The notes under the pieces: model-generated | Database searches by the model: none | Seen by the model: only the letters and a program-made list of their open reading frames with translations | What the model was told of the DNA's origin: nothing | Origin: Candidatus Methylomirabilis limnetica | GTDB taxonomy: Bacteria; Methylomirabilota; Methylomirabilia; Methylomirabilales; Methylomirabilaceae | Assembly (NCBI RefSeq): GCF_003044035.1 | Contig: NZ_NVQC01000006.1 | Span: 1-14,070 of the forward strand | DNA: 14,070 bases | Direction of reading: 5' to 3' | Made by a program: the position numbers and the translations under genes | Shown: positions 3,014 through 14,070 of the stretch, piece after piece | How positions within the stretch are numbered: position 1 is the stretch's first letter | How the letters are laid out: the number at the start of each line of letters is the position of its first letter

Positions 3014-4077
3014 GGTTTCGGGCGCCTGGTTGTTTTCGGCTTCGACAGCTTCTTCACCTCGTCCTCGAGTTGCTTGAGGGTGTCGGCCTCCGACTCGTCT
3101 TCGAGTTGGGCACGCCGCCTGGCAGCGAAGCGGTCATACTCCTGCTCCGCGATGGCGTCTGCCTGTTCGCGACTGACCTTGCCGGCGTCGGGCAGGATGG
3201 CGCGCTCGTTCAACCGCAGGAAATCCTCGAGCCGACTCTGCCAGTTGTGCAGGAAGATCTGCTTGCGCCGCCTGGCCTGATCCTCGGCGAAATCGAGGAA
3301 CATGACGACGATGCGGTTCAGCTCGTTGATCTCGGCCTCGCGCAGGTAGTTCTTGGCCACGGTCACATCGCCCTTGCGGACCACGCCGCTCTTCCACGCT
3401 GTCAGCCCCATGTTGGGCTGGGCGGAGTCGGCCCGTTCGGCGATCAGTTCAGGCGCGGTCTTGCCGGTGGCGGCGAAGTGCAGCTTGTTCTGCACCGTCT
3501 GGAAGAAAACCTGCGTCTCCGGCTCGGAGGGCGAATAGTCGGCGGCCAGCGCGAGGATCTCCCGCACGCGCAGATACACCCGGCGCTCGCTGGAGCGAAT
3601 GTCGCGGATGCGCTCCAGCAACTCGTCGAAGTAATCCGTATGTCCCTTGCCCGGCGGATTCTTGAGCCGCTCGTCGTCCATAGTGAATCCCTTGACGAGA
3701 TACTCGTTCAAGCGCGCCGTCGCCCATTGGCGGAACTGGGTGCCGCGGGGGCTGCGCACGCGGTAGCCGACGGCGAGAATGGCGGGCAGGCTGTAGTGTT
3801 CGACCTCGCGAACGACTTCGCGGGTGCCCTCCAAACGAACTATCCGGAATTTCCGGATAGTTGCCTCTCGGCTCAATTCGCCCTCCTCAAAGATGTTCAC
3901 CAAATGCTCATTGATCGTCCGCACATCTTTCTGGAAGAGCTCCGCCAGAAGCGCCTGTGTCAGCCAGATGGTATCATTCTCGAATCGGCACTGGATGCGC
4001 GTCTGCCCGTCCTCCGTCTGGTAGAGGATGATGCTGGATTGCGGCGCCTCGTTGTCGGGCATGCGATTAATGGACAA
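3010..4077 (-). CDS. RhuM-family protein (virulence protein RhuM-like), embedded in the RM operon
   Basis: The ORF is 355 aa. The N-terminus (IILYQTEDGQTRIQCRFENDTIWLTQALLAELFQKDVRTINEHLVNIFEEGEL, then YSLPAILAVGYRVRSPRGTQFRQWAT) is typical of the RhuM family as I recall it. The track start at 4077 is TTG and lies inside a repeat, so the ATG at 4062 (MPDNEAP...) is the more likely native start. I found no Fic HxFx(D/E)GNGRxxR motif. Confidence 0.85.
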   Translation of the reverse strand: MSINRMPDNEAPQSSIILYQTEDGQTRIQCRFENDTIWLTQALLAELFQKDVRTINEHLVNIFEEGELSREATIRKFRIVRLEGTREVVREVEHYSLPAILAVGYRVRSPRGTQFRQWATARLNEYLVKGFTMDDERLKNPPGKGHTDYFDELLERIRDIRSSERRVYLRVREILALAADYSPSEPETQVFFQTVQNKLHFAATGKTAPELIAERADSAQPNMGLTAWKSGVVRKGDVTVAKNYLREAEINELNRIVVMFLDFAEDQARRRKQIFLHNWQSRLEDFLRLNERAILPDAGKVSREQADAIAEQEYDRFAARRRAQLEDESEADTLKQLEDEVKKLSKPKTTRRPKP

Positions 4078-4096
4078 TTGAGAGTGGATAATTGAC
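4066..4096. repeat. Left arm of the inverted repeat bracketing the four-helix-bundle ORF (TGGACAATTG / TGGATAATTGA motifs)
   Basis: The sequence ATTAATGGACAATTGAGAGTGGATAATTGAC at 4066-4096 is matched by the reverse complement of 4461-4491: an 11-nt perfect TGGATAATTGA plus an 8-nt ATGGACAA. Confidence 0.8.
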
Positions 4097-4101
4097 AGCG
4101 T

Positions 4102-4458
4102 TCATTGGCTCATCTCGCGCTTGCTTGAATTGATAATGCTGGTCAGAAGCTTTAGGAGTTCAACCACATTGTGATGAATGGATGAGAACGCAGCGGGCTC
4201 CAAATATTGTGTCTCGTGCAATAACTCCAGCCAGTATTCGGTCTCGTTGGTTTCCTTCAGAGCGATGGCCATCTTATGGACAAAGTCGGCCTTGCTCTCT
4301 GCCTGTTCAGCTTCTCGAACCAGTGCGCCAATGGCCGTCCCCGAGCGCAACAATTGCTTGGACAGAACAAATTCTTTTTTCTCAGTACACAAATGTTTGT
4401 ACAGAATTACAATCCGCACTGCGAAAGCAAATGACTTCTCCTTGACGACATTCCCCAT
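4102..4458 (-). CDS. Four-helix-bundle protein (23S rRNA intervening-sequence protein family, Avd-like)
   Basis: About 118 aa from ATG 4458; the track's 4464 start is TTG. The sequence KSFAFAVRIVILYKHL...LSKQLLRSGTAIGALVREAEQAESKADFVHKMAIALKETNETEYWLELL is the characteristic pattern of this family. GC content is visibly lower than in the neighbouring genes. Confidence 0.85.
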   Translation of the reverse strand: MGNVVKEKSFAFAVRIVILYKHLCTEKKEFVLSKQLLRSGTAIGALVREAEQAESKADFVHKMAIALKETNETEYWLELLHETQYLEPAAFSSIHHNVVELLKLLTSIINSSKREMSQ

Positions 4459-4460
4459 CG

Positions 4461-4491
4461 TCAATTATCCATTGTCCATTGTTAATTGTCC
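4461..4491. repeat. Right arm of the inverted repeat bracketing the four-helix-bundle ORF; it overlaps the last 9 codons and the stop of hsdS
   Basis: TCAATTATCCATTGTCCATTGTTAATTGTCC carries three copies of the GGAYAAT motif on the minus strand. It encodes TGQLTMDNG-stop of HsdS. Confidence 0.8.
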
Positions 4492-5667
4492 CGTAAAGGC
4501 TTGGTGCAGCAGCGATTTCTTCAACGCCTCTAACGCGGCGAGCTTCTGCTGGTAGATGGATTCGAGGCGTTGGGTTGCTTCGTGGAGGTCGTCGAGTTTG
4601 GTGACAATTTCTTTTTGCTCAGCGACAGGCGGAAATGGAAACCGTTCGTTCTCGAACGTGCCCATGTTGATGTTTGCTTGGGCGCTTCCTTTTCCCATCG
4701 CTTGGAGGCGCGCCTTGAATGACTGAAGGAGGTACTCGATGAAACCGACATCAGCCTCTTTGGGGTTCGCCAGCACGCCAATGACGCTGTCTGGAAAGCA
4801 AGCGTCGAAGCCCAAAATTGCCGTCTCCGCGATGTTCGCCGCGATTGTTATACAAATTGTTCCATTCGGCCACAGCTTGCTCTGGGCAAGTCCGGCTTCG
4901 CTGTAAGTCTGTGAATACTCGGTGATGATGTGGTCTGCATTGCGAATATCGCCGGTTTGGACGAATGGATATTTCCCACCGTAAAGATGTGGTGCATTTC
5001 GTGGTCGGTGCTTTGACTTACCCCGACCAAAGGTTGTTGCTATCTCTTCCAATGTCTTTTGTTTCCACCCTTTGCCGCGCTGGGTGAAGACGGATTGGAG
5101 GTGGCTTTCGAAGAGGACGCGGGCGTTTTGGAGGTTCTTTTCGGCGTTGGCTTTGGCGGTGGCGAGGCCCTCAAACGCTTCGTCGAGGATGCCGACGATC
5201 CGCTGCTGTTCGGGGAGCGGGGGGACGGGAATTACCTGCGCTTTCACATCTCCATCAGTAACTGCTGGATAGCTTGCCCCCTTCTGGAGGCTTTCCATCT
5301 GTGCGATGAAGTCCTCAGTAAAAAGGGAGTAGAACACGAACCGGTGGTCAATTCCATGCTTCGCTCGGAGAACGAAATAGCCGGTGCTACAAACTTGCTT
5401 GTCGAGATGCTCCGGCACGACAGCGATTCGCTGCAATGTTGGCCGCACCGTCGCAAAGAGCACGTCGTTCTCTCTCACGAGCTTCCTAGCCCGGCTTGGC
5501 GCGTTCTTTCCTTTGAGGCGTTGCGTTGCCTTAATCTGAAACGTTGCGTTGGAGACGCTTGAAACATCGATGTAGTCGAACTCCGTTTCTGGCGATTGGA
5601 GCGGATTAACCGTCTCGGTCTTTTGCAGAACTTCGCCGAGCGTTTTGGTTGGCCACTCCTTCTTCAT
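4465..5667 (-). CDS. hsdS: Type I restriction-modification specificity subunit (HsdS)
   Basis: The ORF is 400 aa, with two variable target-recognition halves. Each half is followed by a conserved helical spacer (PPLPEQQRIVGILDEAFEGL...NARVLFESHLQSVF and PPVAEQKEIVTKLDDLHEATQRLESIYQQKLAALEALKKSLLHQAF). Its ATG overlaps the stop of the upstream MNT gene (5664-5667). Confidence 0.93.
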   Translation of the reverse strand: MKKEWPTKTLGEVLQKTETVNPLQSPETEFDYIDVSSVSNATFQIKATQRLKGKNAPSRARKLVRENDVLFATVRPTLQRIAVVPEHLDKQVCSTGYFVLRAKHGIDHRFVFYSLFTEDFIAQMESLQKGASYPAVTDGDVKAQVIPVPPLPEQQRIVGILDEAFEGLATAKANAEKNLQNARVLFESHLQSVFTQRGKGWKQKTLEEIATTFGRGKSKHRPRNAPHLYGGKYPFVQTGDIRNADHIITEYSQTYSEAGLAQSKLWPNGTICITIAANIAETAILGFDACFPDSVIGVLANPKEADVGFIEYLLQSFKARLQAMGKGSAQANINMGTFENERFPFPPVAEQKEIVTKLDDLHEATQRLESIYQQKLAALEALKKSLLHQAFTGQLTMDNG

Positions 5668-5984
5668 AGCAGCGCCTTGCTTGGCTGCTCATAAAACAGC
5701 ACGCCCACGCGCTCGATATGCTCCCGTAGTTTTGCGTGATTCAGTTCATTGAAAACCGAGAGATCAATGGTGTAGGGCAACAGCAGATCATCCAGCGCCG
5801 ATGCTATCGTCGAGCGCAAATCAGACGTGAGCGCCTCGCCACAGAGCATCAAATCAATGTCCGAGCCCGTCTTGAAGTTTCCCTTGGCGCGAGATCCATA
5901 CAAAATCGCCTTTTCAATCTCCGGGAAACGCGCAAAGACGGCACAGATGTTTTCGACCGTTGTTTCAGTTAACCCATATTTCAT
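5664..5984 (-). CDS. Minimal nucleotidyltransferase (MNT) domain protein, partner of the adjacent HEPN protein
   Basis: The ORF is 106 aa with the nucleotidyltransferase signature LYGSRAKGNFKTGSDIDLML (GS...SDxD). It overlaps the HEPN gene by 4 nt (5981-5984). Confidence 0.9.
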   Translation of the reverse strand: MKYGLTETTVENICAVFARFPEIEKAILYGSRAKGNFKTGSDIDLMLCGEALTSDLRSTIASALDDLLLPYTIDLSVFNELNHAKLREHIERVGVLFYEQPSKALL

Positions 5985-6406
5985 GAGTTCTTGTCTTCCT
6001 GATCATGTAGTGCAGTGAATTTCTTCGCCATACTCTGAAAGGCCGGATAAAACCGTTCCAGGATATCATCCGCAACCGCCTGAGCGATCTTGAGGTCGTA
6101 GGTATGCGAGGTCAGATTGCGAACTTCTATCATTTTCATCCAGTCCTCGCCTTGCACGATAAGACCATTCTTGAACGCTTCACGCGTCGCGTCTTTTGAG
6201 CCAATCAAGCCGACGATCCCTTTATCCTCTAAATAATCTTTCAATACATTCCATGCCAGCTCATGGGTGAACTCAAAACTTTGAATCAATCCCTGTTGCT
6301 CAAGCTTGGATAATTCGCGCGAGCGTGCCAATTCCACCGCCTCAACGAGCGTCTGAAATGCCTTGAGGTAGTTGTTGAACCGCTGTTTCCACCGAATGTC
6401 ATCCAT
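5981..6406 (-). CDS. HEPN-domain protein (HI0074-like nucleotidyltransferase substrate-binding subunit)
   Basis: The ORF is 141 aa. The N-terminus (RWKQRFNNYLKAFQTLVEAVE) and the Rx4H motif (RNLTSH) are typical of the HI0074 family. It starts 14 nt after the hsdM stop. Confidence 0.9.
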   Translation of the reverse strand: MDDIRWKQRFNNYLKAFQTLVEAVELARSRELSKLEQQGLIQSFEFTHELAWNVLKDYLEDKGIVGLIGSKDATREAFKNGLIVQGEDWMKMIEVRNLTSHTYDLKIAQAVADDILERFYPAFQSMAKKFTALHDQEDKNS

Positions 6407-6420
6407 AGCCTGATCCTCCT

Positions 6421-7884
6421 TTACAGCATCTCCTTGATCTTTCTCAGCACCTCGGCGCTCTCCGCATCGAGCGCAGCGATCTCGTCCATGATCTCCTGCG
6501 GGCTGCGGTGCGCGATTTCCTCGCCGCCGTTGGGGTTCTTCACAGAGAGGTCGAAGGTCGCCTTGTCGATGCCCTTGGCGTCCACGCTCCAGCTCTTGGG
6601 CGAGTCGGCGAAGGTCTCTTGCAGCTTCACGAAGTCGGCGAGGTCGGCGTCGTTGAGCGGGTTGGTCTTACCGAGGTTGCGGCCGGGGTCGAGCTGGTAG
6701 AACCAGACCTTGCGCGTGGGCGCGCCTTTCTCGAAGAACAGCACGACGGTCTTCACGCCCGCGCCCTGGAACGTGCCGCCGGGGCAGTCGAGCACGGTGT
6801 GCAGGTTACAGCTTTCCAGCAGGAGCTCGCGCAGGCTCACGGAGGCGTTGTCGGTATTGGAGAGAAACGTGTTCTTGATGACCACGCCGCCGCGCCCGCC
6901 GGCCTTGAGCATCTTGATGAAGTGCTGGAGGAACAGGAACGCCGTCTCGCCGGTGCGGATGGGGAAGTTCTGCTGGACCTCCTTGCGCTCCTTGCCGCCG
7001 AAGGGCGGATTGGCCAGCACCACGTCGAAGCGATCCTTGTCCTGAATGTCGGCGAGGTTCTCGGACAGCGTGTTGGTGTGGACGATGTTCGGCGCCTCGA
7101 TGCCGTGCAGGATCATGTTCATGATAGCGATGACGTAGGCGAGGGACTTCTTCTCTTTACCGTAGAAGGTGCGGTCCTGAAGGATGCGGTCCTGTGCGGT
7201 GGTGCGCTTGGGGTGGGTCTCTTTCAGGTACTCGTACGCCTCGCACAAAAAGCCCGCCGAGCCGACCGCGCCGTCGTAGATACGGTCGTCGATCTTGGGG
7301 TGCACGACCTGGACGATGGCGCGGATGAGCGGGCGCGGGGTGTAGTACTCGCCGCCGTTGCGCCCGGCGTTGCCCATGTTCTTGATCTTGGCCTCGTAGA
7401 GGTGCGACAGCTCATGCTTCTCGGTCTGCGAGCGGAAGCGCAGTTCGTCGATGTGGTCGATGATCTCGCGCAGGTTGTAGCCGCTCTGGATCTTGTTCTT
7501 GATCTCTCCGAAGATCTCCCCGATCTTGTATTCGATCGTGTTTGACCCGGTGGCCTTCTGCTTGAAGCCGTGCAGGTAGGGAAAGAGCTTCTGATTGACG
7601 AAGTCGCGGAGGTCGTCGCCGGTTAGGACCCTGTTGTGGTCGAGCTTGCCGTCCTTACCCTTGGGCGCGGCCCAGCTTTCCCAGCGGTACGGTTTGTCGA
7701 GGATGTAGCTGTACTTCTTCCTCTCCAGCGCGGCTTCATCGGCGCGGTCCTGCTCTAGTCCATCGAGGTATTTCAGGAACAGCAGCCAGGACGTCTGCTC
7801 GGTGTAGTCGAGCTCGGTCGTGCATCCCGCCTCTTTCCAGAGGACGTCGTCGATGTTCTTGAAGGCTTGTTCAAACACAGGCAC
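6421..7884 (-). CDS. hsdM: Type I restriction-modification N6-adenine DNA methyltransferase subunit (HsdM)
   Basis: The ORF is 487 aa with the SAM-binding motif DGAVGSAGFL and the catalytic motif LANPPFGGKE. The N-terminal HsdM_N-like region reads FKNIDDVLWKEAGC...EQTSWLLFLKYLD. The listed start is GTG at 7884. A second GTG at 7878 has better spacing to a GAGGA Shine-Dalgarno sequence. Confidence 0.95.
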   Translation of the reverse strand: MPVFEQAFKNIDDVLWKEAGCTTELDYTEQTSWLLFLKYLDGLEQDRADEAALERKKYSYILDKPYRWESWAAPKGKDGKLDHNRVLTGDDLRDFVNQKLFPYLHGFKQKATGSNTIEYKIGEIFGEIKNKIQSGYNLREIIDHIDELRFRSQTEKHELSHLYEAKIKNMGNAGRNGGEYYTPRPLIRAIVQVVHPKIDDRIYDGAVGSAGFLCEAYEYLKETHPKRTTAQDRILQDRTFYGKEKKSLAYVIAIMNMILHGIEAPNIVHTNTLSENLADIQDKDRFDVVLANPPFGGKERKEVQQNFPIRTGETAFLFLQHFIKMLKAGGRGGVVIKNTFLSNTDNASVSLRELLLESCNLHTVLDCPGGTFQGAGVKTVVLFFEKGAPTRKVWFYQLDPGRNLGKTNPLNDADLADFVKLQETFADSPKSWSVDAKGIDKATFDLSVKNPNGGEEIAHRSPQEIMDEIAALDAESAEVLRKIKEML

Positions 7885-7933
7885 CCATCCTCTACGCGGT
7901 CAGTGTCGCGTTGTGGTCATGTCTCGTGCGGGC

Positions 7934-8011
7934 TAACGCGGGGCTGAGCCGCCGCAAAACGGTCGGTTTCGTGCCCATGGTTCTCCCGGAGCGGAGCGGA
8001 GGGAGAACGCC
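7934..8011. repeat. Repeat family copy 1 (71-nt core plus a 7-nt tail), 46 nt upstream of the hsdM start
   Basis: The sequence is TAACGCGGGGCTGAGCCGCCGCAAAACGGTCGGTTTCGTGCCCATGGTTCTCCCGGAGCGGAGCGGAGGGAGAACGCC. Positions 7934-8004 match 8608-8678 with 3 mismatches, and the tail GAACGCC matches 8726-8732. It contains the small hairpin GTTCTCCC-N13-GGGAGAAC. Confidence 0.85.
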
Positions 8012-8068
8012 TGAACTCACAGGTGCGGCGGTTATTTTGCCGCATCCTGTAGAGTGATTGGTTATGTG

Positions 8069-8272
8069 TTATTTTGTTATTGTTTCTACTATGGAAATGT
8101 CTTTTTTTATCCATTCATTTACTATCGTTGCAACCTCAACACCTTTTTTCTTTGAGAATTTTCTTAGCACTTCCATCATGTCCGGCTCGATATAAATAGG
8201 TAGATACAATTCTGCATCTGGACGATAAAACTTACCTCTCTCACCTTTGGAAAAATCGTATTCTTTTTTCAT
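8069..8272 (-). CDS. Antitoxin in the BrnA position (small CopG/RHH-like protein), partner of BrnT
   Basis: The ORF is 67 aa. The N-terminal MKKEYDFSKGERGKFY is typical of antitoxins encoded downstream of DUF497/BrnT toxins. A GGAGG Shine-Dalgarno sequence lies 8 nt upstream, and the ATG overlaps the brnT stop (ATGA, 8269-8272). Confidence 0.72.
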   Translation of the reverse strand: MKKEYDFSKGERGKFYRPDAELYLPIYIEPDMMEVLRKFSKKKGVEVATIVNEWIKKDISIVETITK

Positions 8273-8568
8273 TTATTTTCCTCCTGATACTGTTTTGATT
8301 CTTTTCTGGTTGCCTTGCGGGCTGAAATAATTCTAATTCTGCAACAGTCGGCATCCAACTGCTGGAAAGTATGTACTACAACCAACAAGATACCATTCCC
8401 GTCAATTCCGATTGTAGCCCATCGGTCTTCGTGTTCGCTATGCTCACTATCAAAAACGGCGATCATTCTTAGATCAAGAAAAATAGTGGATGCTTGCTCA
8501 AAACCAATCCTATGTTTTTTTCGATTTACTTTTGCCTTATTGGGATCCCAGTCAAAATAATAACGCAC
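8269..8568 (-). CDS. brnT: BrnT-family (DUF497) ribonuclease toxin
   Basis: The ORF is 99 aa. It carries FDWDPNKAKVNRKKHRIGFEQASTIF and RIISARKATRKE, the hallmark BrnT motifs. The start is GTG, preceded by GGGAG 6 nt upstream. The gene is AT-rich relative to the window. Confidence 0.88.
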   Translation of the reverse strand: MRYYFDWDPNKAKVNRKKHRIGFEQASTIFLDLRMIAVFDSEHSEHEDRWATIGIDGNGILLVVVHTFQQLDADCCRIRIISARKATRKESKQYQEENK

Positions 8569-8607
8569 TTGTTGCTCCCATTTATATTTCCTTTCTTATT
8601 TTACGTA

Positions 8608-8732
8608 TAACGCGGGGCTGAGCCGCCGCGAAGCGGTCGGTTTCGTGCCCCTGGTTCTCCCGGAGCGGAGCGGAGGGAAGGGGCACCGGCTCAGCCCCGC
8701 GTTCTCCATGAGCGAAGCGAAGGGAGAACGCC
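8608..8732. repeat. Repeat family copy 2 (full-length form) containing a 95-nt imperfect palindrome (8609-8703)
   Basis: The outer arms AACGCGGGGCTGAGCCG (8609-8625) and CGGCTCAGCCCCGCGTT (8687-8703) are perfectly complementary over 17 nt. The inner arms are GTGCCCCT (8645-8652) and AGGGGCAC (8679-8686). There is a mini-hairpin CCGC-GAA-GCGG at 8626-8636, followed by the hairpin CGTTCTCC-N15-GGAGAACG (8700-8730). Confidence 0.85.
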
Positions 8733-8849
8733 GCGCGGATGAGCGGCGGAAGCGGAGTCGAGCTTGCTCGGCGGAGCTGCAGTCCGCTCGATCCGCTGGT
8801 TGACCGTAGCGAAGTGGAGGTCAGCCAGCGGATTCTTGATCCGCGCGGC

Positions 8850-8879
8850 GTTGCCGCTCCGCCGCAGCGGAGCGGCAAC
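8850..8879. other. Perfect 13-bp stem, 4-nt loop hairpin in non-coding GC-rich DNA
   Basis: The hairpin is GTTGCCGCTCCGC-CGCA-GCGGAGCGGCAAC. Neither strand has a downstream T-run, so I am not calling it an intrinsic terminator. Confidence 0.7.
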
Positions 8880-9218
8880 CAGTTATTAGATGGACGGATA
8901 AGTACAGCACAGATTCTTATACACGGTCAAGGTGAAATAAGAACTTGATGTAAACTATAAAGTTCCATTACAAACAGCAATGGCTAATAGGCAATTCACG
9001 GAATATCAAACGTGAAACGCCTACTATGCGGTCCGCGGATTAGTCACTGTTGATTCGCTGCCATATGCTCAGTATTTCGCCAGATATTTTAAAACAATTT
9101 GGCACCGACCTGGAAAAAGGGGCGGCTCCTTTCTCTCTCCGCGCCGAGAAGTTTCGGAGTGCTCCGATGCGTGTGTGCCGGCCAGCCGCTGCAACGAATG
9201 GTTCGGCTGCCTCCACCA

Positions 9219-9507
9219 TCACGTCTCGCTCTCTACCAGGACCAGGTCCCGGTGCGGCATGACAGCCGCGAAAAGCTCCGAGAGTTTCTGGATGGTCGGG
9301 ACTTGATCGGCCCTGCTGATAACGGGCGTAGGCGTTGATGGAAGTGGCGCCAAGACGCTCCGCGACCTGGGCCAGGCTCAAACCGGCGCGCTGTCTGGCG
9401 CGGCGAAGAAGAAAGGCGGTGAGCGTGGGTTGATCCTCTGAAGTGACTTCAAAGTGCTCCCCGGTTCCGGGAAACACCTCGAGCCTGAATCCCGGCCGAT
9501 TGACCAA
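9219..9507 (-). pseudogene. XRE-type HTH antitoxin-like gene, frameshifted near 9300-9306 and lacking an ATG or Shine-Dalgarno sequence
   Basis: The track ORF 9040-9507 begins at TTG directly after an in-frame TAG. It reads GFRLEVFPGTGEHFEVTSEDQPTLTAFLLRRARQRAGLSLAQVAERLGATSINAYARYQQGRS and then becomes P/G/R-rich nonsense. Shifting one frame at about 9305 gives QVPTIQKLSELFAAVMPHRDLVLVESET-stop (stop at 9219-9221), which is the expected end of an HTH_XRE domain. Confidence 0.6.
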
Positions 9508-9727
9508 GGAAATGAACTACCCCGCAGCAAGCTGCAGGGTATCGTCTTCTGTTCTGGCCCGTCATTCCGTGCTTGACACGCCTGCCCCGTACTTGATACG
9601 GGGCCTGCCCCGTACTGGATACGGGGGAATCCGGTCGGGCCCTCTGGATACCGGCGCCTGCCCCGGACCACGATCCGGGGTCCACCGGTATGACGAGCTC
9701 GCGGCAAGCCGCAGGGAATGAACCCCC
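9508..9727. repeat. MITE/REP-like composite structured repeat
   Basis: The element is bounded by GGAAATGAACTACCCC (9508-9523) and GGGAATGAACCCCC (9714-9727). It has GCAGCAAGCTGC-type hairpins at 9519-9538 and about 9695-9713. Three CCTG-prefixed 7-bp hairpins lie at 9585-9603, 9608-9626 and 9661-9680, the last nested inside ATACCGG/CCGGTAT (9648-9654 / 9685-9691). The ORFs across it translate to the low-complexity peptides typical of such repeats. Confidence 0.7.
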
Positions 9728-9795
9728 AGTGGATTCAGGACGTGCGTAGAAATCATGGTCGTGCGGACATCTTTATGCCCCAATCATTCCTGCCG
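9715..9795 (-). pseudogene. Remnant of the extreme C-terminus of an integron-integrase-like tyrosine recombinase
   Basis: The minus strand reads RQE-stop-LGHKDVRTTMISTHVLNPLGVHS. This resembles the conserved ...QELLGHKDV(K/R)TTMIYTHVLN.GG.GV.SP C-terminal block of IntI-type recombinases, which contains the catalytic Tyr; here that Tyr position is Ser. An in-frame TGA interrupts it, and no upstream catalytic domain is present. Confidence 0.5.
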
Positions 9796-9796
9796 G

Positions 9797-10141
9797 TCAC
9801 GGCGCATTCAGGCTTTTCCGTCCAGGCGGTTCACGCTTCTCTTGCTTTGTTACGCTTTTCTTGGCTCTACCTGAAGGTGCGTGCTTCAGCTTTTGGCGTG
9901 TCTGGCCTGGCAGCTTCATGTCCAGGAGCGGCAAAAGTAATTCTCGCCAGTTATCGACCGACCCCATGATACCGTTAATTTCAAGGCTGTCTTCGCCGTA
10001 ATACACCTGGAGCTGTTCGTTGCAGCAGCCGCATTTCAATAGAAACCGGGGGTCTCGCTTCCCCTGTTTAGTCCGATGAAATACTCGGATATCCCAATAA
10101 CCATCCGAGCGGGTTTGGGCAATCTTGCGATTCGTTCCCAT
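9797..10141 (-). CDS. Hypothetical small protein with a CGCC motif and a basic C-terminal tail
   Basis: About 114 aa from ATG 10141, which is preceded by GAGGAAA; the track start at 10153 is TTG. The sequence reads MGTNRKIAQTRSDGYWDIRVFHRTKQGKRDPRFLLKCGCCNEQLQVYYGEDSLEINGIMGSVDNWRELLLPLLD, then a K/R/P-rich tail. I cannot assign a family. Confidence 0.5.
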   Translation of the reverse strand: MGTNRKIAQTRSDGYWDIRVFHRTKQGKRDPRFLLKCGCCNEQLQVYYGEDSLEINGIMGSVDNWRELLLPLLDMKLPGQTRQKLKHAPSGRAKKSVTKQEKREPPGRKSLNAP

Positions 10142-10284
10142 CGATTTCCTCAAGATCTCAACCCCTTCTATCTTCCCCCGCTCACGCTTTCACACGGCAC
10201 CCCGTTGCCATCGCTGTCCAGGCCGCTTACGGCCTGTAGCGGAGGTATGGCTCATCGCTGGAATATCTGTTCCCGCCGGCGGTC

Positions 10285-10536
10285 TTACGCCGCCGTCAGT
10301 CGGATATCGAGAGAGCTCCCGAGGACTCGCGGGACCTTCAGCAGCGTCTCGATAGTGACATTGCCTGCATTGTGTTCGATCCGGCTGATCGCTGCCGCGA
10401 TCTGGGTCTGGCCAGCTTTTGTTACCGACGGAGCGCAGCGAAGCGGCGTCGGGCTCGATGTCCTCGGCCCCAGCGCCTCAAGGCCATGTCGCAAAGCCTG
10501 TCGTGAACATGTCGTAAACATTGTCACAAAGATCAA
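10285..10536 (-). CDS. Short HTH protein resembling the C-terminal two-thirds of HigA-like addiction-module antidote proteins; possibly 5'-truncated
   Basis: The sequence [43 protein letters not shown] fits the helix-turn-helix ...GN.....TLLKV..ALG..L end of that family. Candidate starts are TTG 10536 (overlapping the Fic stop) or ATG 10521, neither with a Shine-Dalgarno sequence. The family's usual N-terminal ~40 aa are absent. Confidence 0.4.
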
Positions 10537-11582
10537 CCCGGCTCCGCCAGGCGGTAGAGCAGGTGGTGCGTTTCACCTTCGGTGACCAGCAGTCCGACAT
10601 CGACCATGACTTTCAGATCCCGCTGCAGAGACCGACGGTTGACCTCGGGACACAGACGTTCGAAGCCCTGGATAGTCAGGCTGCCGTGCTCAAGAATGTG
10701 TCCAATGGCCTTGGCCTGGCGCTCCGAAAGATCATGCTCCTTGATGAGCACATCCCGTCGGATGGCCTGCTCTCCGCGCTCTCTCACCTCGGTGAGCTGG
10801 GTGGCCAACCCCTCTACGAAGTACTCCAGCCACCCGGTCATTTCCATGCCGCTCCCCCGGACGCTCTGGATCGCGTTATAGAAAGCGGCCCGATCACGGT
10901 CGTAGTACTCGCTGATTGTGAACAGCCGCTTGAAATCGTACCCGGCCCGATAGAGGCTCAATGTAGAGAGCAGCCTGGAGGTGCGGCCGTTGCCGTCCAG
11001 GAACGGGTGGACATGCACAAACTGGAACTGGGCGACGCCGCTCACCAGTACGGGATGAACCTCCTGTTCGCGATTGAGCCAGTCCACCAGCTCCGCCATC
11101 ATGATCGGCACGTCGTGAGCCGGAGGCGGCGTGTAGACCGTCGCACCGGTCACTGAGTTGACCACGTAGTTCTGGATTTTCCGGTACTCGCCAGGAGCCG
11201 CGGCCCCACCACGGACACCTTCGACGAGCCGCTTGTGGATTTCCCTAACCAGTCCCTCAGTGATCGGTCCACTGGTTTCCAGATATTCGGAGACGAAATC
11301 GAAGGCCTTCCGGTAGTTCAGCAGTTCCCGCACGTCGTCGGGGTCTGCCTCGAGGACCGGGTTCCCCTCTAGCAACCGCTTGGCCTGCTCCAGGGTCAGG
11401 CGCGTTCCCTCGATGTGTGTGGTATGGTGGGCTTCCAGGATCAAGGCGCGCCGACCCATCTCACGCACCCAGGCATCGGACAGGGTCGCGGCCTCCAGGA
11501 ACCCCCGGGCCCGCTCGATGCGGGTCAGCCCGGCGGTGATCCGGTTGGTGATCGTGAAAATGGGTTTGAAGCTCTTCGTCAT
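10533..11582 (-). CDS. Fic-family protein (AMPylase-type), class II with an N-terminal inhibitory helix and a C-terminal winged-helix region
   Basis: The ORF is 349 aa. The Fic active-site motif [12 protein letters not shown] is intact. The inhibitory motif (S/T)xxxE(G/N) is present as TTHIEG, upstream of the core. Confidence 0.9.
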
Positions 11583-11710
11583 GGAGTAGCGTTGCTTTCT
11601 TTAGATTTCCTGCGGCTACAGATGGAATGCCTAATGCCAGCGGTCACCAGCCGGTTCGCTGAGAAACCATAAGGAAGAGAGCCGGTCTGGTGCACCGCCT
11701 GGTTGGGCCG

Positions 11711-12046
11711 TTAATAAATACATGCATCAAGGATAGATAACACCTCGTCAAGCACAGCATCAGAAGCGGTGCCTATACGCCTGACCTTACGCGTACGATA
11801 ATCTATCGACTTGACCTGTTCAACCATGACGAAACCGGCCACATTCGGATCGTTGGGAATCACCACATGAAATGGGAACCCTCGATCTGTCTTCGTGACA
11901 GGACAGACGATAACGAGGCCGGTATGTTGGTTAAACAGCGTATTGCTGACAACTAAGGCCGGCCGTCTGCCCCTCTGCTCGTGGCCGGACTGCGGATCGA
12001 ACGTAACAGTAACGAAGTCGCCTTTTCTTGGTATGTAGTCGGCCAT
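11711..12046 (-). CDS. mazF: MazF/PemK-family endoribonuclease toxin
   Basis: The ORF is 111 aa. It reads YIPRKGDFVTVTFDPQSGHEQRGRRPALVVS...GLVIVCPVTK...VMVEQVKSIDYR, which is characteristic of the family. Its ATG directly follows the mazE stop (TAAATG). Confidence 0.9.
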   Translation of the reverse strand: MADYIPRKGDFVTVTFDPQSGHEQRGRRPALVVSNTLFNQHTGLVIVCPVTKTDRGFPFHVVIPNDPNVAGFVMVEQVKSIDYRTRKVRRIGTASDAVLDEVLSILDACIY

Positions 12047-12295
12047 TTACCACGATTCTCTGCCGACAGGTTGTCCCCAATCAATTTCTTCCGCTTCATA
12101 GTCGCTGGGGATGCGAGAGACCAGTTTCTGGAGGCTATGTTTTCCACGCACACGCCTCACAGGAGCAATGACGATGACACCATCTTTTGCGCGCACCTCA
12201 ACATCGTCACCAAGCGAGATGTGCGCTTCCTCAAGAACATGCTTGGCCAGGCGAAGTCCTTGGCTATTACCCCATTTTTGGATCTTGGTCACCAC
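12047..12295 (-). CDS. mazE: MazE-type antitoxin (AbrB/SpoVT swapped-hairpin fold)
   Basis: The ORF is 82 aa. It carries TKIQKWGNSQGLRLAKHVLEEAHISLGDDVEV. The start is GTG, with GGAGG 7 nt upstream. Confidence 0.88.
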   Translation of the reverse strand: MVTKIQKWGNSQGLRLAKHVLEEAHISLGDDVEVRAKDGVIVIAPVRRVRGKHSLQKLVSRIPSDYEAEEIDWGQPVGRESW

Positions 12296-12320
12296 AATCG
12301 GCCCTCCTGAGAATATACAT

Positions 12321-12350
12321 GGTATAGCCCTTGACTGAAATCATGTCAAG
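12321..12350 (-). promoter_or_regulatory. Putative sigma70-type promoter of mazEF with an overlapping operator-like palindrome
   Basis: On the minus strand the order is TTGACA (plus coordinates 12344-12349), a 17-nt spacer, then TATACC (12321-12326), about 25 nt upstream of the mazE start. The inverted repeat CTTGAC-N9-GTCAAG (12330-12350) overlaps the -35 element. Confidence 0.45.
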
Positions 12351-12364
12351 TATTGTTATGGTCC

Positions 12365-12397
12365 AATGCGGGGCTGAGCTGCCGCGAAGCGGTCACG
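12365..12397. repeat. Repeat family copy 3 (partial), between the Fic stop and the mazEF promoter
   Basis: AATGCGGGGCTGAGCTGCCGCGAAGCGGTCACG matches the first ~30 nt of copies 1 and 2 (GCGGGGCTGAGCCGCCGCGAAGCGGTC). Confidence 0.75.
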
Positions 12398-13863: not shown

Positions 13864-14070
13864 TTAGACGTTACCGCTTGTACGGCGGCGCCACAAGCGC
13901 CTGTATGTCGCCGCGTTGAGGATCAGAACCAGCGTCCCGAGAACCACCTGCACCGGCCGGGTCAGGTTCTGCGGGTAGAGGACTGGCAGCAGATAGTGCT
14001 CGATGAAGCCGCCCGCGTACCCCGCCTGGCCACCCAGTTGGCGGAACCGAATCTCAAGAGGGGTGAGCGG
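13864..14070 (-). CDS. 3' end of an unidentified ORF (68 codons plus stop); hydrophobic stretch then a basic tail, possibly a membrane protein
   Basis: My translation of the minus strand from the window edge is PLTPLEIRFRQLGGQAGYAGGFIEHYLLPVLYPQNLTRPVQVVLGTLVLILNAATYRRLWRRRTSGNV-stop (TAA at 13864-13866). I did not recognise a family. Confidence 0.3.
   Translation of the reverse strand, partial: PLTPLEIRFRQLGGQAGYAGGFIEHYLLPVLYPQNLTRPVQVVLGTLVLILNAATYRRLWRRRTSGNV

Follow-up and report, generated by a model that had tools for sequence, protein, structure and literature searches.

A stretch of 14,070 nt of DNA from Candidatus Methylomirabilis limnetica (the window) carries several copies of a short repeat, here called the unit, whose full form spans 118 bp. 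The window is very probably a decayed chromosomal integron, and the unit a gene-less cassette that was moved by recombination at G|TT (the bar marks the crossover point) and is now a fossil. A preliminary description of the same DNA had suggested a degenerate integron or a cluster of attC sites lacking an integrase (CALIN), and the attC sites, the attI-like site and the stump of an integron-integrase gene that we found in the window support that interpretation. The kind of system is known; what is new is a family of gene-less, self-mirroring attC cassettes.

The boundaries of the unit were defined by comparison with other loci that carry it. A scan of one genome per species (185,579 species genomes) for the exact pattern of the degenerate core gave 18 loci, of which one (L018, a partial match inside a gene) was treated as a chance match, and a scan of metagenomes with the core pattern gave a further 48; genomes and metagenomes together yielded 77 occurrences in 58 distinct contexts. 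Similarity between loci starts at G|TTCTCCC and stops at CCCCGCG|TT, and the 28 distinct full-length sequences recovered from other loci, which are bounded by G|TT or A|TT, vary mainly in two loops. Of the 58 contexts, 45 have GTT and 8 have ATT at the 3′ joint; the 7-mers there are of 35 kinds, GTTAGGC being the commonest. This is comparative evidence for crossover at the G|TT of R′. The sequence at the 5′ end, assigned in 46 contexts, is an attI-like motif in 19, an attC in 18, something else in 8 and a contig end in 1; in the 18 contexts with an attC, this is a model-detected, classical-looking site that ends exactly at the G|TT of the unit. The orientation of the unit is constant in every array seen, although the dominant fold of its long form has no unpaired spacer or bulges. 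From such comparisons of sequence we infer that the unit is mobile and that one strand is chosen, and any function it may have beyond being moved would be read from the same comparisons.

The motif that precedes the first cassette in 19 distinct contexts, YTAATAACTKG|TT, lies a few hundred nucleotides or less from a divergent gene, and at loci L010 and L050 this gene passes the NCBIfam cut-off for integron integrases (TIGR02249, 265 bits) with 372.8 and 363.3 bits, respectively. Because of this position near a divergent integron-integrase gene we regard the motif as attI-like; the unit frequently takes the first cassette position behind it. At L034 the integrase (6737–7678; 482.3 bits) is co-oriented with the cassettes and 46% identical to that of L010, and a closely similar unit lies near 5386–5503, beside the integrase gene; the unit therefore adjoins genes that score above this cut-off in several related loci (L010, L050 and L034). 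In the window, as at L063, the motif starts about 185 nt from the start of the divergent intI, and the window, L015, L022 and L028 share their sequence as far as the G of the attI-like site and diverge after the TT. Both the position of the motif and the comparison of homologous loci thus place an attI beside intI in the window, with cassettes joined at G|TT.

What is left of intI in the window is a plus-strand remnant of its first codons, which the preliminary description had overlooked, as it had the attI-like site and the attC sites of the brnT and mazEF cassettes. The remnant matches the start of a gene at L063 (873–1760) whose best NCBIfam match is TIGR02249, and the DNA flanking it is colinear with L063, the rest of the gene having been lost from the window. 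The L063 gene has an N-terminal extension of about 173 residues before the TIGR02249 core; the same N-terminal piece is present at L010 (5068–5202), where stop codons split it from the core, and stumps of it occur at L006, L007, L013, L027, L030 and L032 as well as in the window. A fragment of an IntI-like C terminus, to which the preliminary description had pointed, does exist (LGHKDVRTTMISTHVLN; 17–22 residues, 68% identity over 22 residues to the IntI of L010, tblastn E=0.002), but it is not the remnant adjoining the attI-like site. We rejected it as the integrase of this integron: about 850 nt separate it from the attI-like site, it is encoded on the cassette strand, and the stump adjoining that site sits on the opposite strand. 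The window itself holds no integron-integrase gene, but a stump of 28 codons and this scrap of 17–22 residues on the other strand. Promoter-like sites are present in both L063 and L010 at the place homologous to a putative remnant of the cassette promoter in the window (Table 1); in L063 they comprise TTGCCC-18-TATATT with an upstream TG, plus a divergent TTGACG-18-TACCAT. A scan of the attI region of the window and of the unit found no terminators.

Canonical attC sites were sought with two surrogate covariance models built here, R1 from aligned attC-like neighbors of the unit and the broader R2. RNAalifold, run on a MAFFT alignment of the neighboring attCs, gave no structure, the central parts being misaligned, and pair counts were used instead. 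For 15 attC-like neighbors and a structure drawn by hand (AAC/GTT, a 6-nt spacer, a 12-bp stem and two bulges on the 5′ arm), pairing holds in 86.5% of cells, and both partners vary in 11 of the 15 pairs; none of 500 shuffles did as well, and controls in which the structure was slid gave pairing of only 31–48%. With R1 we detected 67 attC sites in the 66 loci, spaced much as cassettes are (roughly 0.15–2.3 kb between ends), all 67 on the strand of the unit and 0 on the opposite strand. In the window, the attC of cassette 1 scores 21.6 bits with R1 (E=3.5e-4) and 38.7 bits with R2 (E=3.4e-8), that of the brnT cassette 42.6 bits with R1, of whose training set it is a member, and 40.7 bits with R2, and that of the mazEF cassette, not a training member, 30.7 bits with R1 (E=7.5e-7) and 40.2 bits with R2. 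With three minus-strand attCs at 38.7–40.7 bits under R2, the window contains a cassette array of the CALIN type, that is, at least two co-oriented attCs at cassette-sized spacing.

On the gene strand the unit reads (G)TTCTCCC-TTCGCTTCGCTCA-GGGAGAAC-GCGGGGCTGAGCCGGTGCCCCTTCCC-TCCGCTCCGCTAC-GGGAGAAC-CAGGGGCACGAAACCGACCGCTTCGCGGCGGCTCAGCCCCGC(G)|TT, 118 bp from TT to G. Its right 53 nt (GGGAGAAC...GCGTT) fold as a small attC. An R box (GGGAGAAC/GTT...) is followed by a 2x2 mismatch and then by a stem in which the A of CCG[A]C bulges out, and the 3-nt apex is GAA when read on the bottom strand; the 2x2 mismatch and the bulged A are as in the fold of the class 1 aadA1 attC, a sequence that we verified in about 1950 plasmid records. 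Aligned with the aadA1 attC, the right half of the unit is identical at 39 of 62 aligned positions (63%), and the score of 45 exceeds those of all 1000 shuffles (15.2 ± 5.8, maximum 36); the predicted folds of the two share one architecture. In the left part, the first 8 nt of the cassette pair with R″ to form a hairpin, and behind it the attC arms are repeated as a 47-nt mirror copy. This 47-nt module of the long form is the reverse complement of the outer arms of the attC, and therefore the whole unit closes into a perfect stem (17 bp, or 22 bp with its own R′; −46 kcal/mol). The short form consists of the inner attC and the hairpin of first 8 nt and R″. R″ is exactly complementary to the bases with which the cassette itself begins, and R′ mostly fits GTTRRRY. 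By position and crossover point the unit is an attC; the models support this weakly.

Variation among the copies bears on the fold. A change of R″ from AAC to AAT is paired with a change of the 3′-terminal G to A at L020, L024, L039 and L064, and T-A to C-G swaps occur in the first hairpin at L013 and L020; on these sequence grounds the pairing appears to be under selection. At L045 (oriented position ~1450–1600) the 47-nt internal module is tandemly amplified, in the L005 group (L005, L035, L038 and L046) loop 1 is exactly inverted (TGAGCGAAGCGAA), and short forms recur at L016, L021 and L063, changes that would fit a rearrangement-prone palindrome. The asymmetry that remains in the long form consists of an extra hairpin on the 3′ arm and three GCGNAGC motifs, all on the bottom strand. 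(According to PMC5027507, strand choice by the integrase depends on the unpaired spacer and the bulged bases, and both strands of some attCs still recombine efficiently after the bulges have been removed.) Cassette 1 of the window resembles the unit in that its 5′ part mirrors the 3′ end of its own attC; L015 has a shorter version of this cassette after the same attI-like site, and the relation of long to short parallels that seen in the unit.

The apex motif CGCTNCGCT was found on the top strand in 7 of 56 attCs and its complement in 0 (shuffle mean 0.11); canonical attCs with this apex occur at L008, L015, L023, L025, L028 and L066, and the unit has it in loops at window positions 8719, 8672 and 7998. 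Its bottom-strand reading is GCGNAGC, which among attCs occurs 12 times on the bottom strand versus 5 times on the top strand and which is the very stable GNA mini-hairpin.

Within the window, the 27-nt core of the unit (GCGGGGCTGAGCCGCCGCGAAGCGGTC) is found on the plus strand at 7938, 8612 and 12368 with at most two mismatches (n=3), and 200 shuffles of the window gave a chance expectation of 0; the three copies on the gene strand that the preliminary description had reported are thus present. Copies 1 and 2 are 96% identical across their common 71 nt, and copy 3 has just ~35 nt in common with the others. The 7-mers reported to follow the copies, GTTAGCC, GTTATAC and ATTGGAC, each match GTTRRRY at 6 of 7 positions as described, and their coordinates hold except that GTTATAC lies at 8605–8611 and not at 8604–8610; the next gene begins about 46, 36 and 65 nt away (46, 35 and 65 in the preliminary description), and every called gene is, as claimed, on the minus strand. 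The repeat had been seen as an element 5′ of modules, and this view has to be replaced: it is an open reading frame (ORF)-less cassette in its own right, or a stub of one, between neighboring cassettes. Likewise, the 95-nt AAC...GTT palindrome inside copy 2 (8609–8703; 17-nt perfect arms, −44 kcal/mol, z ~ −4) is real, but it is no canonical attC in itself, because both unpaired spacer and bulged bases are missing; the right half, 53 nt long, is the attC proper, and the extrahelical bases that the preliminary description had proposed to look for are found in this inner site and not in the dominant fold of the 118-bp form. Copy 3 directly adjoins the stop codon of the Fic gene upstream, and the short form (copy 1) is followed by TTAGCC... 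and then by the hsd operon. The system in the window no longer works: its integrase is gone, mutation has turned two joints into ATT, and what remains of the unit is one full copy, one short form and one stub. With its 17-nt terminal inverted repeats the unit might be taken for a miniature inverted-repeat transposable element, a candidate that we rejected because there is no target duplication and because short forms without the left repeat keep their G|TT ends.

A fourth, 5′-truncated copy, ending G|TTAGCC, lies ~210 nt past position 14070 on the 51-kb source contig (7690–7767 of L067), flanked by hicAB and a DUF2784 gene and fused to the apparent tail of a brnT-like ORF. The 17 genome loci come from metagenome-assembled genomes (MAGs) labeled as Nitrospirota, Deltaproteobacteria, Ca. 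Brocadia, Thermodesulfobacteriota, Armatimonadetes, Nitrospinae, Dehalococcoidales, Ca. Methylomirabilis and Bifidobacteriaceae, the last with a single copy that a contig end cuts through. The unit was found neither in IMG/VR viral contigs nor in PLSDB plasmids.

Several observations weigh against a decayed integron with the unit as a cassette. A search for intact intI and attI, proposed in the preliminary description, turned up the attI-like site but no intact integrase within the 20 kb of source contig examined, and a consensus scan detected no promoter-like site on either strand of 8550–9250. The 118-bp form is predicted to fold mainly into a perfect stem that has neither unpaired spacer nor bulges, and R″ (GGAGAAC) departs from RYYYAAC. 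The unit scores 7.3 bits under R1, below significance, and under R2 its inner attC scores 14.5 bits in copy 2 (E ~0.09) and 13.1 bits in copy 1 (E ~0.2); these matches share the strand of the contig's three canonical attCs and come next after them in rank. The nine phylum-level labels were taken from MAG records, and mis-binning is possible. A single simple integron, moreover, does not account for the mazEF and Fic cassettes beyond the integrase stump, and the surrogate models detected no attC after hsdR, the hsd operon lying downstream of the last joint; on the latter ground we rejected this operon as a cassette.

How the unit would move can be proposed from established integron biology. An integron integrase would act on a folded single strand of the unit at G|TT, and the unit would be excised as a small circle and then re-inserted, mostly at attI. 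Such movement could account for the exact G|TT joints and the frequent first-cassette position, and also for the near-identity of units in integrons whose integrases are 46% identical; that the first 8 nt are complementary to the unit's own R″ is as expected if both ends were once joined in a circle. It is conceivable, though we judge it somewhat short of probable, that the unit is a self-propagating ‘empty’ cassette, an integron parasite in which an attC with a mirror of itself as its only cargo hops between integrons of many phylum labels and lies near attI as a result of unusually frequent excision and re-insertion. If so, the mirror arm and the bottom-strand GCGNAGC mini-hairpins would be adaptations for easy folding.

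Alternatively, the unit may be carried as a cassette and act as a structured non-coding leader or small RNA that is transcribed from the cassette promoter and tunes downstream cassettes. In 19 of the 46 contexts with an assigned 5′ end it comes right behind the attI-like site; this location, the promoter-like sites upstream in relatives and its very strong structure (z ~ −8) would suit such a role, and regulatory gene-less cassettes are documented (PMC11014356). We nonetheless think this unlikely. At a permissive E-value Rfam gave no credible match (two sub-threshold matches are chance ones), and the consensus scan was negative for promoter-like sites within the unit. Variation is greatest in the loops, of which loop 1 is inverted in one lineage; the unit is a near-perfect DNA palindrome with its GCGNAGC motifs on the non-transcribed (bottom) strand; and wobble-type substitutions occur without consistent bias to the transcribed strand. 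It is more doubtful still that the unit is no independent cassette but a conserved 5′ portion of larger ones, able to move only together with the downstream gene. At L063 and L021 the unit and the same downstream sequence follow different upstream partners, but co-transfer on at least one occasion cannot account for the 35 different heptamers past the 3′ end in 58 contexts, and the first 8 nt of the unit are the exact complement of its own R″. Scarcely credible is the REP-like alternative of the preliminary description, put here as a repetitive extragenic palindrome or bacterial interspersed mosaic element (REP/BIME) that punctuates transcripts, is spread by a REP-associated transposase and has nothing to do with integrons: the unit is GC-rich, palindromic, intergenic and oriented as the genes are, but the scan of 185,579 species genomes gave at most three exact-core copies per genome, they are confined to co-oriented cassette arrays, solely among attCs or beside attI and intI, they end at G|TT and are nearly identical across MAGs labeled as different phyla, unlike REPs, and no gene like that of a REP-associated tyrosine transposase was seen.

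The features of the decayed integron are collected in Table 1.

Table 1. Features of the probable decayed integron in the window, with positions counted from the first nucleotide of the 14,070-nt stretch
Feature	Position	Strand	Basis or content
Integron-integrase 5′ remnant, 28 codons (MLSISPDILKQFGTDLEKGAAPFSLRAE)	9065..9148	+	BLASTP 20/28 identity to first 28 residues of L063 gene, E=5e-10
attI-like site CCGTCCATCTAATAACTGG|TT	8879..8897	-	Crossover between G8879 and T8878
Putative cassette promoter remnant, TTGACC -35-like box, -10 decayed	8916..8930	-	Homology to L063
ORF-less cassette 1, 150 bp	8729..8878	-	Own attC at 8805-8727
Full 118-bp ORF-less cassette (copy 2)	8611..8728	-	R′-loop-R″ hairpin, mirror arm, inner attC 8661-8609
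brnT/antitoxin cassette	8008..8610	-	brnT 8568-8269, small ORF 8272-8069, canonical attC 8067-8006
71-bp short form (copy 1)	7937..8007	-	R′-loop-R″ and inner attC, without 47-nt mirror module
3′ stub of unit (copy 3)	12365..12394	-	L′ and spacer, R′ mutated to ATT
mazE-mazF cassette	11635..12366	-	Canonical attC 11708-11633, R′ = ATTAGGC
Tyrosine recombinase C-terminal fragment LGHKDVRTTMISTHVLN	9733..9783	-	Catalytic Tyr to Ser

The brnT gene matches Pfam BrnT_toxin (E=7.8e-25), and mazEF matches Pfam MazE and PemK. The GC content of the brnT/antitoxin cassette is ~37–39%, versus roughly 58–65% over most of the window, and its attC recurs at L064, where a full-length unit follows; both observations are consistent with a foreign origin and with cassette transfer. 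The region adjoins leuS-lptE-holA. The minus-strand genes of the window comprise an IS21 transposase gene (1 to ~640), hsdR, genes for a RhuM protein and a 23S rRNA intervening-sequence (IVS) protein, hsdS, a nucleotidyltransferase (NTase)/HEPN-like pair and hsdM, followed by brnT with its small ORF, a helix-turn-helix (HTH) protein gene, genes for a Fic and an HTH protein, mazEF and a second Fic gene.

Other observations concern the surroundings of the array. Within 4102–6406 the type I restriction-modification operon is interrupted by the RhuM-family gene, the IVS-protein gene and the NTase/substrate-binding (HEPN-like) pair, and a 28-nt inverted repeat (4069–4096 and 4460–4487) brackets the IVS-protein gene. 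The IS21-family transposase gene (istA, 1–685), identified from its translation alone, has direct repeats of the AAAAGGGACCCAC type, lies ~35 nt past the hsdR stop codon and continues past the edge of the window. A weak attC-model match at 598–651 falls in repeat-rich sequence that we read as the end of the neighboring IS21 element, and this element may have cut off whatever lay after the hsd operon. Directly downstream of the recombinase fragment is a compound palindrome (9560–9695) made of tandem hairpins, GCCCCGTAC..GATACGGGGC (twice) and CTGCCCCGGACCACGATCCGGGG, within imperfect outer inverted repeats CGTCAT.CCG. Inside a weak 83-residue HTH ORF (10285–10536) lies the hairpin CCGACG-CCGCTTCGCTGCGCTC-CGTCGG (10425–10452), with a loop motif as in the apexes of the unit and of attCs; it may be a relic of another cassette boundary.

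As an object of study the window is an ordinary decayed integron, and the repeat is of more use. Chromosomal attC sites are usually lineage-specific. The unit is common to 58 contexts, nine phylum-level labels and at least three integrase lineages and varies mainly in its two loops, and this wide sharing makes it well suited to tracing the exchange of cassettes among environmental anaerobes and nitrogen-cycle bacteria. No selectable cargo can explain its spread, since it carries no gene, and it therefore offers a clean test of selfish cassette spread, as well as a test of how much an attC can lose (spacer and bulges) and yet move in one orientation.

Among known systems, the aadA1 and aadA7 attCs of class 1 integrons share with the unit the AAC...GTT ends, the G|TT crossover, an R box built from the two ends, the 3-nt apex GAA (bottom strand), the bulged A in CCG[A]C and, on the L′/R′ side, GCGGCT.A.C ... 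GCGTTAG. The unit differs from them in that its R″ is GGAGAAC and not RYYYAAC, its spacer is 2x2 nt, its left L box pairs poorly, the mirror arm of the 118-bp form gives a perfect stem without spacer or bulges, and its scores under the surrogate models are borderline. REP/BIME elements are likewise short, GC-rich, intergenic palindromes, but differ from the unit in copy number, context, boundaries and cross-phylum identity. Gene-less cassettes have been tested from Vibrionaceae superintegrons and from Treponema, mostly with promoter activity (PMC11014356, PMC6557892). Like them, the unit lacks an ORF and fills a cassette position between attC crossovers; unlike them, it is 118 bp long, has no promoter-like site, contains little beyond an attC and its mirror and occurs under many phylum labels. 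The window as a whole is closest in kind to CALINs and decayed sedentary chromosomal integrons, with which it shares co-oriented attCs, toxin-antitoxin cassettes and the lack of a working integrase nearby, and from which it differs in that it keeps an intI stump and an attI-like site and has cassettes on both sides of the stump.

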